Shown: positions 36,901-39,900 of the stretch, piece by piece
Numbering within the stretch: position 1 is the stretch's first letter
Layout: each line of letters opens with the position of its first letter
Source: Longimicrobiales bacterium
GTDB lineage: Bacteria > Gemmatimonadota > Gemmatimonadetes > Longimicrobiales > Gaopeijiaceae
Assembly (NCBI GenBank): GCA_965226375.1
Contig: CBDDCX010000008.1
Location: 1,280,001 to 1,344,000 of the forward strand
Reading direction: 5' to 3'
DNA length: 64,000 nt
Program-made: the position numbers

Positions 36901-39900
36901 GTCTCCAGTCACCGAGGCGCCGTGCTGCCTCGCGAAGCACGACGACCTCTGCATGTGCGGTGGGATCCTGCGCCGTCACGGTCCGGTTGTGTCCCTCGGC
37001 CAGCAGCCGGCCCTGCCAGGTGAGTACCGCGCCCACCGGCACCTCACCCCGAGAGCCCGCCAGTACAGCCATCTCCAGAGCCCGGGCCATCCACATGGAA
37101 TCGGTGGACTCCGATGGGGTCCAGTCTACCGGGGGGGAAGACGTGGGGGCGCCCAAGGCTAGACTATCGGAACGTGATGTCCAGGGAGAGCCCCCGGACA
37201 CATCCTCTAGTGTGCCGTGCTGCTGACCAGGATGGCGGCACCGTCCATGCGCCGGTACAGTGCCACGACCCGCCCGATAAGTTGCAGCCGCGATGGATCC
37301 TCAACAGCAGTCGCCTGTCCTCCGCCGTGCACAGGTATGAGGAATACGCCGCGTCCGTTTCGCGAGAACTCGTAGAAGGATGGCCCACCGTCGATCCGCG
37401 CAACGACGATCGCTTCCGCCGCTAACTCATCGACGGAGGTGGGCTCCACGAGCAGGTAGTCACCATCGTGAATACCGAGCGAGGCGAATTCTGCTCCGCT
37501 CGCACGAACGAAGAACGACCCCTTCACACCGGCGAGGCGCCGGTCCATGGTCAGGTGCATCTCGGCCTGTTCGATTCGCAGGCCTACCCGATCTTGCGGG
37601 AGTTCATGATAACAGGGAACCGACACGGTCTGAGCGCTCAGGTCCACACCCAGGATCTTCACCCCGCGCGAGCGGGAGGGGTCCCGCTCCAAAAATCCCT
37701 TGTCGGCCAGGGCCTGAAGGTGCTCGGAAACGGTCTTAGTGCTCTTGATCCCAAACCGTTCGCCGATCTCGCGGATGGAGGGCTGATACGTGTTGGTACG
37801 CAGGTAATGCACCATGAAGTCGAGTATTTTGCGCTCGATTTCGGTGATGCCTTGGTCCATCCGTGACGCCGATATTCTTGGATTCGGCACTCAACACCCA
37901 CTTACATACAGAATAAACACCTGTTCCCGCCACCGAAAGGGTCTTGTCGGGGCTGGGATGAGGACATCCTAATGCGCGGCGATCCACCGAGTCAAGGAAG
38001 GGCCCTAATCACGTGCGACAGTCGGTGCTTCAGGAGCCTCGAGACGCTCGATGGCCCAATCCAGGCGCGCCAGAACCCGCTCCCTGCCCAAAAAATCGAG
38101 AACTTCGAAAATTCCGGGACTCGCCGGGCGACCCGTAACGGCCACACGGAGGGGATGGATGACCTTGCCCGCCCCAACGGAAGTCTCCTCTGCATAACCC
38201 CGTATGATCTCTTCCATCGCTACTACGTTCCAGGCGCCATCGGCAAGCCTGGACCGTAGGGTTGTCAGCCTTTCCAGGGTCTCCTCCGGTGACTTGAGCC
38301 AGTGTTTCTGGACCGCCTCAGCATCGAAGTCGAGCTCTTCGGTGAGGAACGGACGGGCCAGATCCACGAGATCGGAGACGCGGCGCGCTCGAGTCTTCAG
38401 GAGATCGATAAGGCCCAAATACCAGTCCCAGCGCTCCTGGAGCTCGTCCACAGTCGCCAGCCCCGCAGCTTCCAGCCCCTCCGTAAGGTAGGGCTCCAGC
38501 TCGACGGCAGTACTCGCGTTGAAGTGTTGTCCAGAGAGCCAATCGAGCTTCTTGGGATCGAAGACGGAGCTCTTCTTGAGCACACGGTCCATGGAGAAAC
38601 GATCAACGAGGTCCTCGACGGTCATTATTTCCTGATCATCGCCCGGACTCCAACCCAACAACGCCAGGAAGTTGACCATGGCCTTGGCTAGAAAGCCCTC
38701 TTCCTCGTAATCGCCTACCGCCGTGGCTCCATGGCGCTTGGAGAGTCGCTTGCCGTCCGAGCCGAGTATCATCGGAACATGGCCGAATATGGGGACGGGC
38801 CACCCCATAGCCTCGTAGATCAAGATCTGCTTCGGCGTGTTCGACAGGTGATCGTCTCCGCGGATCACGTGGCTGATGCGTTGCTCCGCATCATCCGACG
38901 CGACAGCGAGATTGTACGTGGGGCTCCCGTCACTACGGAGAATGACCAGGTCGTCTATGTCCTCGTTCTGAAAAGACATCTCCCCGTGAACCATGTCGTC
39001 CCAGACCGTCTCCCCGTCGGGCACACGAAAACGGACGGCATGAGGCACACCGGTCGCCTCGAGTTCTTCGGCCTCGTCCGGCGCCAGAGACTCCGCACGC
39101 CGCCTGGGCACACGCCGGTCGGAGGCACCGCCCTTGGCCGCCTCCCTCTGTTGAGCGAGTTCCTCGGGGGTCGTGAAGTCCCGGTAGGCCTTTCCCGCGC
39201 TCAGTAGGCCCAGAGCATCCCGCCGATGCCGTTCGACGCCGTCGCTCTGATAGTAGGGACCCTCGTCCCAGTCCAGACCCAGCCAGCGGAGGGCGTGGAG
39301 GATGGCCTCGGTATGCTCGGGCTTCGACCGATCCCGATCAGTGTCTTCGATACGCAGGACGAGCGCACCTCCGTGATGCCGGGCGAACAACCAATTGAAC
39401 AGGGCTGTACGGGCGCCACCTACGTGAAGATATCCTGTTGGTGAGGGGGGGAACCTGACTCGTATCGTCATATTATTAAATGATTTACCATAGTTTTTCT
39501 AATGTATATTCTGGTTTTAGCGCCTTCGGCTTCTCCATGTGGAGCCACGCCTCAGAGGGTGCCCCAGAGAGAGCGGTGCTCACCCGCTGACGGCGATCCC
39601 TTCCCCGTAGTGGGTCCGTACGTAGTCGTCCAAAATCACCTTGAACTCGTTCACGAGAGCGTCCCCACTGAGCGTGGAGTGGTGCTCTCCGTCCACGTAA
39701 ACGGGGGCTTTGGGCTCCTCGGACGTGCCCGGCAACGAGATTCCCAGGTTGGCGTGCTTCGACTCGCCTGGACCGTTTACCACGCACCCCATAACGGCCA
39801 CGGTCATCTCTTCGACGCCGGGAAAGTCCTCACGCCACCGGGGCATCTGATCTCGGATGTACCCATGGATTTCCTGGGCCATCTCCTGGAAGAACGTGCT

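Follow-up and report, generated by a model that had tools for sequence, protein, structure and literature searches.

A second LexA in the Longimicrobiales and other families of the class: recurrent loss of the self-cleavage residues

Introduction

Self-cleavage of LexA requires an Ala-Gly pair and the catalytic residues Ser and Lys, according to the available parts of PMC1524924. Escape of LexA from RecA control has been documented mainly in one cyanobacterium. In Synechocystis PCC 6803, LexA (Sll1626) carries Gly-Gly in place of Ala-Gly and Asp in place of Ser, and is reported to control genes outside SOS (PMC1524924, PMC3091678). In Leptospira, a single genome encodes two LexA proteins that recognise different sites; LexA2, one of the two, is damage-induced, declines upon UV exposure and occupies the promoter of its own gene (PMC3789691). 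LexA duplication has also been linked to motif divergence and is the proposed way in which SOS motifs come to differ (PMC8565304).

The gene described here lies in a 64,000-nucleotide stretch of a Longimicrobiales genome (assembly GCA_965226375.1, contig CBDDCX010000008.1, positions 1,280,001 to 1,344,000), which we call the window. It belongs to a LexA group, LexA2, of which we found no published description in the literature on Gemmatimonadetes and Longimicrobi LexA or on non-cleavable paralogues, a coverage from which subscription journals are mostly absent. The window protein shares with Synechocystis LexA the LexA architecture, an altered Ala-Gly and the loss of the catalytic Ser, whose position is mostly Asp or Glu among its close relatives; in both, cleavage determinants have gone and the DNA-binding domain has been retained. 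Synechocystis LexA has lost two of the three determinants, whereas the window protein, from f1, the family of the window genome, has lost all three. Unlike the cyanobacterial protein, LexA2 coexists with an intact SOS LexA (LexA1), and its paralogue group has undergone the loss on at least four occasions. The helices come from different phyla, and the two proteins are likened by working mode, not by orthology. On our best reading, LexA2 would work as Synechocystis LexA does, as a non-SOS regulator that RecA cannot cleave. It differs from Leptospira LexA2 in that no autoregulatory site is seen and the cleavage residues are missing. Intact, partly decayed and fully decayed forms of LexA2 with one recognition helix occur across the class and could show what becomes of a regulon once its inducing signal is removed, and what takes the place of that signal; the result remains a comparative one.

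Results

The window gene encodes a second LexA

The lexA2 open frame (37207..37860, minus strand) encodes a protein of 217 residues (P0001) with the LexA fold. The survey's finding had given this frame, the name LexA and the Pfam scores, all of which were reproduced: LexA_DNA_bind (PF01726) scores 71.5 bits and Peptidase_S24 (PF00717) 35.3 bits. Against TIGR00498 the protein reaches 114.4 bits, barely above the cut-off of 110.95. The winged-helix DNA-binding domain (residues 1-73; 37642..37860, minus strand) contains the recognition helix STKTVSEH and the wing RSRG, and is followed by a degenerate S24 domain (residues 78-204; 37249..37629, minus strand). AlphaFold2 modelled it twice, at a mean pLDDT of 83.9 and 83.2; either model contains the two LexA domains, with the former cleavage loop poorly ordered (pLDDT 61-63). 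In a Foldseek search, LexA structures came out on top (E 6e-14, TM up to 0.71), and the C-terminal domain also matched LexA. At least 120 homologues are listed, at 64-89% identity. Thus the window gene is a genuine second LexA.

The protein has the domain order and fold of canonical LexA (TIGR00498; E. coli and Thermotoga; structures 1jhf, 3jsp and 3k2z) and scores above that family's cut-off; it possesses the winged helix and the C-terminal S24 fold, and lacks the scissile Ala-Gly and the Ser-Lys dyad. It further differs from canonical LexA in showing no box upstream of its own gene, in having Ile8-Glu9 for Arg-Gln and in carrying an extra His-ended tail. By profile alignment, Ala84-Gly85, Ser119 and Lys156 of E. 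coli LexA correspond to Gln89-Asp90 (37591..37596), Glu124 (37489..37491) and Tyr163 (37372..37374, all minus strand). A DNA contig from a public run spans lexA2 with zero coding differences, so the substitutions are not an assembly error, and the absence of the cleavage residues is real. The automatic name 'LexA repressor' also covers proteins that are probably unable to self-cleave.

Self-cleavage residues were lost recurrently

We scored 90 LexA2 proteins at the three positions, excluding one fusion; 26 are intact and 64 degenerate, and the LexA1 proteins are intact in 39 of 39 cases. No f1 protein is intact (Ala-Gly 0/27, Lys 0/27, Ser 1/27), as the survey's finding had stated for this family. 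Its view that the loss was confined to this family had to be given up: Ala-Gly is missing from all 23 proteins of f2, and 13 of 20 in f5 (7 being intact) and the single f6 protein are degenerate. In f2, where none is intact, one protein keeps Ser and Lys, nine keep Ser, two keep Lys and eleven keep none. All 19 f3 proteins have all three determinants; two sequences described earlier as intact members of f2 probably correspond to f3 as coded here, and f2 as coded here contains no intact protein (0/23). The stepwise loss proposed earlier is supported by the partial states, since 17 of 18 such proteins lack Ala-Gly and retain Ser and/or Lys, which suggests that Ala-Gly is usually the first determinant to go.

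A quick tree has f1 (99) and f5 (100) as starred clades, with the degenerate proteins of f5 interspersed among intact ones; all trees here are quick trees with SH-aLRT support only and a weakly supported backbone. Parsimony requires at least four changes of state between intact and degenerate LexA2. A tree forcing the 64 degenerate proteins together, with motif-based groups fixed before the tree was built, was rejected (p-AU 0.000127). Because the outgroups are intact, the changes within LexA2 are losses. The self-cleavage residues were thus lost recurrently and not from a single origin; between one and three losses lie behind f1, f2 and f6 together. Self-cleavage itself would have decayed independently in several lineages (all of f1, all of f2, f6 and parts of f5), usually beginning with Ala-Gly, and would persist in f3 and part of f5.

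In a set of 81 close relatives (80 further loci plus the window gene, overlapping in part with the sampled genomes), the position of the catalytic Ser holds Asp or Glu in 74 and never Ser, that of the catalytic Lys holds His, Tyr or Phe in 73 and never Lys; Ala-Gly occurs somewhere in residues 82-98 in 15, and the 14 displayed are all off the scissile position. An alignment of database homologues with LexA1 (121 rows) has Gly at position 90 in 72 rows, Ala at 89 in four and Lys at 163 in two, LexA1 itself being one of the four and one of the two, so that a few of the 120 homologues may keep single determinants. Since all three determinants, known as required for self-cleavage (PMC1524924, available text), are gone, the sequences give good support to the view that RecA cannot cleave LexA2 of f1.

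Distribution and gene order

The distribution was determined in an even sample of 301 genomes of the phylum, counting matches to the LexA2 DNA-binding domain at E<=1e-14. LexA2 was found in 42 of 47 f1 genomes (43/48 including this genome), 6/6 of f2, 4/4 of f3, 45/69 of f5 and 1/1 of f6. The last two families are labelled as belonging to the same class and not to the same order; within the order, 80 of 91 sampled genomes have the gene. The tallies include the unpublished genomes G097, G344, G157, G310, G057 and G182, none of whose sequences was used; without unpublished genomes they become 78/89 for the order and 44/68 for f5 in the phylum sample. Six further matches in the 301 genomes, in f4 (1/125), f7 (1/23), f9 (1/3) and f10 (3/13), at E 2.6e-15 to 8.5e-15, were counted as cross-hits, as they come from genomes with a single LexA domain, and four of the loci were classed as LexA1. 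At the same threshold the domain was found in none of three genomes each of f8, f11 and f12. LexA2 was not found in the searched genomes of f4, f7, f8 and f9 or in other classes, nor in 5 of 48 f1 genomes, three of which are single-contig. These absences, in f1 and in f4, f7, f8 and f9, imply that the gene is dispensable.

For 70 of the 80 matches in the order the locus was fetched for neighbour analysis. tadA (36659..37096, minus strand; NF008113; start codon uncertain) lies downstream of lexA2 in 69 of the 70, and gltX (38005..39471, minus strand; TIGR00464), the upstream neighbour across the class, in 55; in f1 gltX is found in only 14 of 27. In f5, gltX adjoins lexA2 in 20 of 20 loci and tadA is within 1.5 kb in none of the 20. 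A second LexA copy adjoining gltX was found in 26 of 30 f5 genomes (20 + 6 in two rounds) that had been picked mostly for having several LexA domains. A position fixed between gltX and tadA, as first described, therefore stands for tadA throughout almost all of the order and for gltX in most of it, and weakens for gltX in f1 and fails for tadA in f5. The description as an order-specific paralogue does not survive: LexA2 also occurs outside the order, in 45/69 genomes of f5 and 1/1 of f6, and orthologues adjoin gltX in both families. An old paralogue at the level of the class is the best explanation.

LexA1 and LexA2 are 35% identical in the DNA-binding domain and 21% in the C-terminal domain. 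Among 36 outgroups, in which no cyanobacterial LexA was identified, they form separate starred clades that are not joined (quick tree, backbone open), and the closest proteins outside LexA2 have ST(N/K)GV helices. LexA2 would thus come from a lineage other than that of the SOS repressor. A phage origin was rejected, the best phage matches reaching just 26-31%, as was a role in defence, for which PADLOC hits are marginal and limited to the helix domain.

Selection acts on both domains

That the DNA-binding domain is highly conserved, as noted before, was borne out: it is 76% identical within f1, compared with 39% for the C-terminal domain. Between f1 and f5 the two domains of LexA2 are 60% and 24% identical, as against 68% and 56% for LexA1 in the same comparison. 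Over 119 pairs, which are not independent (mean dS 0.93), dN/dS is 0.032 for the DNA-binding domain and 0.186 for the C-terminal domain. E9, R30, S40, T41, K54 and R65 are fully conserved (100%) across the four LexA2 groups, and conservation of the helix STKT is 92-100% whether a group is intact or degenerate. The DNA-binding domain of LexA2 is under strong constraint. Its recognition helix is unlike that of the SOS LexA (STKTVSEH vs SLATVHEH), in agreement with the survey's finding, and through this almost invariant winged helix LexA2 probably recognises a distinct DNA site.

Conservation in the C-terminal domain extends to D106, G196, R203 and the strand core, whereas no residue of the cleavage loop is conserved in f1 or f2. 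The conserved part is, we presume, the region of LexA dimer contacts, and the S24 domain has most likely been kept for dimerisation only.

These data bear on the possibility that lexA2 is a decaying leftover of little function, as the repeated loss of catalytic residues, the disappearance of the whole gene from 5/48 f1 genomes, f4 and f7, and a fusion (L101), in-frame and with the C-terminal domain of LexA2 deleted, might suggest. The dN/dS values of both domains at that mean dS largely refute this reading, and intact frames in 90 aligned proteins, a conserved promoter, an invariant terminal His and RNA contigs also speak against it; we regard it as highly improbable.

A role in tuning SOS was considered as well, in which LexA2 would either form the non-cleavable half of a LexA1-LexA2 heterodimer or act on the RecA filament as a decoy. 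LexA2 always occurs beside an intact LexA1 in genomes where both are listed, and the strand and loop of the LexA dimer contact are conserved in it. Yet a decoy would have no need of an invariant recognition helix, and the helix is the most conserved part of LexA2; the interface residues are also unlike (Asp106-Arg107 in LexA2 vs Pro in LexA1, and Arg197 vs Val), with a C-terminal identity as low as that given above. This makes the tuning of SOS decidedly unlikely.

LexA1 carries the SOS role

The only other full LexA of the genome is LexA1 (C8:1757684; 209 bits), in which Ala-Gly, Ser and Lys are intact. A direct repeat, TTCGG-N6-TTCGG, was found in 35 of 39 lexA1 promoters, usually in two copies. 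Five genomes were tested against the reversed repeat as a control, and the true repeat exceeded it in all 5. With a matrix built without sites of this genome, the top ranks went to a DnaE2-like gene (PF07733; presumably of the DnaE2 subtype), two genes nearby, a divergent pair that we take to resemble alkA and a radical SAM gene, an mraZ-like gene (mraZ, on our assumption), recA and lexA1. TTCGG-N6-TTCGG is thus likely to be the SOS box of this poorly studied phylum, although published supplementary motif tables could already hold it. The repeat is similar to GTTC-N7-GTTC, cited for Alphaproteobacteria in the available text of PMC8565304.

Because LexA1 is intact and has its own box at lexA1, recA and the DnaE2-like gene, the SOS role is assigned to it. 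The earlier observation that no SOS box precedes lexA2 was upheld: the LexA1-type box was not found upstream of lexA2, which ranks 636th of 3678 genes, and a score of 14 bits was attained by none of the 91 regions that precede lexA2. That LexA2 is non-SOS is well supported on these grounds. With LexA1 running the SOS response, cleavage of LexA2 triggered by RecA would be dispensable.

We consider it moderately probable that LexA2 in f1 is made constitutively, escapes RecA-dependent cleavage and, as a dimer, regulates a few non-SOS genes. It would be insensitive to DNA damage and probably a repressor; we infer the non-cleavability, the dimer, the repression and the small size of the regulon. 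The claim that it is a non-SOS repressor not inducible by RecA thus stands in its sequence-based part, non-cleavability and a non-SOS role; its other part found no counterpart in an operator upstream of lexA2 or its neighbours, or by footprinting.

A link to DNA damage is argued for by the intact LexA2 of f3 (19/19), where the same DNA-binding domain would be damage-inducible. LexA2 might still respond to damage without cleavage, if activated RecA, ssDNA or an antirepressor bound the dead S24 domain and freed a second set of damage genes. In 26 of 90 proteins the cleavage system joined to the identical DNA-binding domain is indeed intact, purifying selection acts on the C-terminal domain, and Arg155, the counterpart of a RecA contact described in PMC11787620, is kept at 63-100% depending on the group. 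However, the RecA Phe pocket needs a closed cleavage loop (same source), and in f1 and f2 nothing in this loop is conserved, its pLDDT being as low as 61-63; moreover, the identifiable repair genes already bear the LexA1 box. We think such a response unlikely and retain the damage-insensitive regulator.

The lexA2 promoter and the search for a target site

LexA proteins usually bind their own promoter. A sigma70-type promoter, TTGACT-N18-TAGGAT (37966..37995, minus strand; one pattern match found vs 0.3 expected), precedes lexA2, and a permissive pattern picked a similar promoter in 79 of 80 close loci and 73 of 91 loci class-wide. No class-wide operator was found in lexA2 promoters, in which only the -35 and -10 elements are conserved and the flanks are clade-specific, though a weak operator may be present. 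A near-consensus sigma70 promoter would thus drive lexA2, with no sign of autoregulation. Near-identical contigs on lexA2 occur in three RNA runs of one study, and one of them stops 10 bases before the expected start; these contigs give no strand or level information and may include DNA, which makes them weak evidence of lexA2 expression. They leave gltX and tadA mostly uncovered, which has no bearing on the expression of those genes. A GAAC-N4-GTT-like element 40 bases past the promoter was rejected, being present in only 9 of 80 close loci.

A target site of LexA2 was sought in six analyses, all on non-coding DNA, and none was found. Dyad enrichment in one genome and in two genomes gave nothing fitting LexA2 above noise; the top enriched palindromes precede what we take to be PadR-like and BlaI-like regulators. 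Conserved palindromes were not found upstream of the genes neighbouring lexA2 in 80 loci, and inspection of gltX upstream regions by eye revealed no operator. Footprinting compared the upstream regions of 456 orthologue pairs, obtained with a purpose-made gene caller, between this genome and 2.4 of the 2.57 Mb of G080. The LexA1 box emerged from it, as did sites of what we assume to be the CIRCE, Rex and DtxR-like types, with scores within the null range (8.8 for the LexA1 box vs a null maximum of 10.9). Since sites of known type score at noise level, the power of the footprint is low, and it would overlook a regulon that spans just one to three operons.

The only new palindrome from the footprint, GCCA-N3-TGGC, lies at dnaK, hsp20 and clpB. 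Its exact counts are lower in the five f1 genomes without LexA2 (median 1 vs 6, one-sided p=0.008, the genomes being kin and not independent). It was rejected as a LexA2 site because it precedes dnaK, with a sigma54-type promoter, in all five of these LexA2-less genomes, where one of the five copies is degenerate; it is also found at dnaK in one f4 and one f7 genome. All five LexA2-less genomes have sigma54, and the palindrome fits a sigma54 enhancer.

That no target was found and that the gene's own promoter has no conserved operator count against a non-SOS regulator of few genes. They would fit a LexA2 whose DNA binding serves something other than the control of promoters, for example at a few chromosome-organising or replication-linked sites that are possibly intragenic: there is neither autoregulation nor an upstream motif despite the invariant helix, and the context is one of housekeeping genes, gltX and tadA, joined by tRNA-Gln upstream of lexA2 in 16 of 24 f2 loci. 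But the motif searches were low-powered and limited to non-coding DNA, and whole families do without the gene. We know of no LexA with a chromosome-organising or replication-linked role, and we hold such a role to be quite unlikely, the regulator of few non-SOS genes remaining the preferred reading.

The C-terminal tail of LexA2

In the window, LexA2 ends in an unstructured tail (37210..37248, minus strand; pLDDT <50 in two models) closing with Thr-Ala-His. A terminal His is found in 81 of 81 close relatives, 20/27 proteins of f1, 5/19 of f3, 1/24 of f2 and 0/20 of f5, compared with 71 of 3678 proteins genome-wide. The seven f1 proteins lacking it all belong to genus g2 and have a conserved Arg-rich tail instead. 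The tail measures 22 residues from Gly196 in 65 of 80 close loci, and the last three residues of the 81 close relatives include TAH (31), TQH (14), THH (14) and IAH (7). A DNA-level cause was rejected, since the stop codon, the preceding codon and the following bases vary and the His codon is CAT in 5 of the 20 f1 cases; in the close loci CAC is used in 77 of 80, a skew above the expectation from 72% in the genome. A model built on a 110-row alignment of His-ended proteins showed no docking of the tail, itself at pLDDT <50, into the emptied active site.

The tail is a candidate Lon degron, and lon occurs twice in the genome. Lon prefers His as the last residue (PMC11986505) and uses the terminal His of LarA (PMC10665427), according to the available parts of both papers. 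Like the degrons with a C-terminal His that Lon recognises in SulA, LarA and Yersinia substrates, LexA2 carries a terminal His on an accessible, unstructured tail. In the known degrons bulky residues precede the His, and Ala there slows degradation (PMC11986505, in part); LexA2 differs in having no bulky hydrophobics at this point and small or polar residues instead, mostly Thr-Ala-His, Thr-Gln-His and Thr-His-His. Further points against a link to Lon are the near-uniform CAC codon (77 of 80), a common last residue in the neighbouring tadA as well (49 of 77 loci), and the loss of cleavage in f2 and f5 without a His tail. The idea that Lon sets the level of LexA2 in f1 through this tail is therefore speculative, and we put it forward tentatively, as less probable than its contrary.

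A wider proposal is that LexA2 left RecA control repeatedly through rewiring and that in f1 it is switched off by a Lon His degron that predates the loss of cleavage, with the regulon kept. The order of events would follow from the His tail of 5 of 19 still-intact f3 proteins. The proposal as a whole is doubtful; if true, LexA2 would offer a natural series of a transcription factor swapping one proteolytic input for another with its regulon unchanged.

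Conserved features of LexA2

LexA2, the 217-residue protein with degenerate cleavage residues encoded at 37207-37860 on the minus strand of the window, carries Cys83 (37612-37614). Cysteine occupies this position in 78 of the 81 close relatives (the window gene and 80 further close loci), and the cleavable proteins have Leu, Tyr or Phe there. In genus g2, within family f1, a conserved Arg-rich C-terminus replaces the His-ended tail (fetched loci L051, L054, L056, L057, L059, L064 and L105). In the lexA2 5' leader, conservation of a short element, GGGAACAGGTGTTTAT (37905-37922, minus strand), is limited to about the ten closest relatives. 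A single family f2 genome, G338, has the entire TadA joined in frame to the LexA2 DNA-binding domain, with the S24 domain absent (L101:2557-3285); this fusion may reflect a deletion or an assembly fault.

Candidate SOS and heat-shock sites

The direct repeat TTCGG-N6-TTCGG is likely the SOS box of the phylum. In most families two copies lie over the promoter of lexA1, the gene of the intact LexA (repeat at L001:1430-1480, corresponding to C8:1757616-1757657 in the source genome, G000, whose contigs bear C numbers), and the repeat also precedes recA and mutagenesis genes. Further G000 sites are at C8:1488632, C7:254393, C7:282808, C7:270611 and C8:229284. We found no published description of this repeat in the literature searched. 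A strong box of the same type (TTCGGGGTTTATTCGG) lies inside an intergenic element repeated in G000 (C8:904516, 906538, 1936513 and 1938927; C6:430438; C7:609202); this element may be mobile and SOS-controlled. G000 is 90% complete, and a search of it with PF07733 matched a DnaE2-like gene (C7:250951-254349) alone; that query found no replicative DnaE.

Across the class, a palindrome, (CT)GCCA-N3-TGGC(AG), often in pairs, precedes sigma54-type promoters of dnaK, hsp20 and clpB (G000 C8:647591 and C2:34958; L278:11023-11130, L270:4256, L298:13038; L342-L355), which suggests a heat-shock regulon driven by sigma54. Exact copies reach 25 in genus g2, and G000 has five sigma54 activators.

The window also encodes a transporter of the Na+/H+ antiporter family (33399-35402, plus strand); its weak match to Tet(35), at 163 bits, falls far under the curated cut-off of 750.
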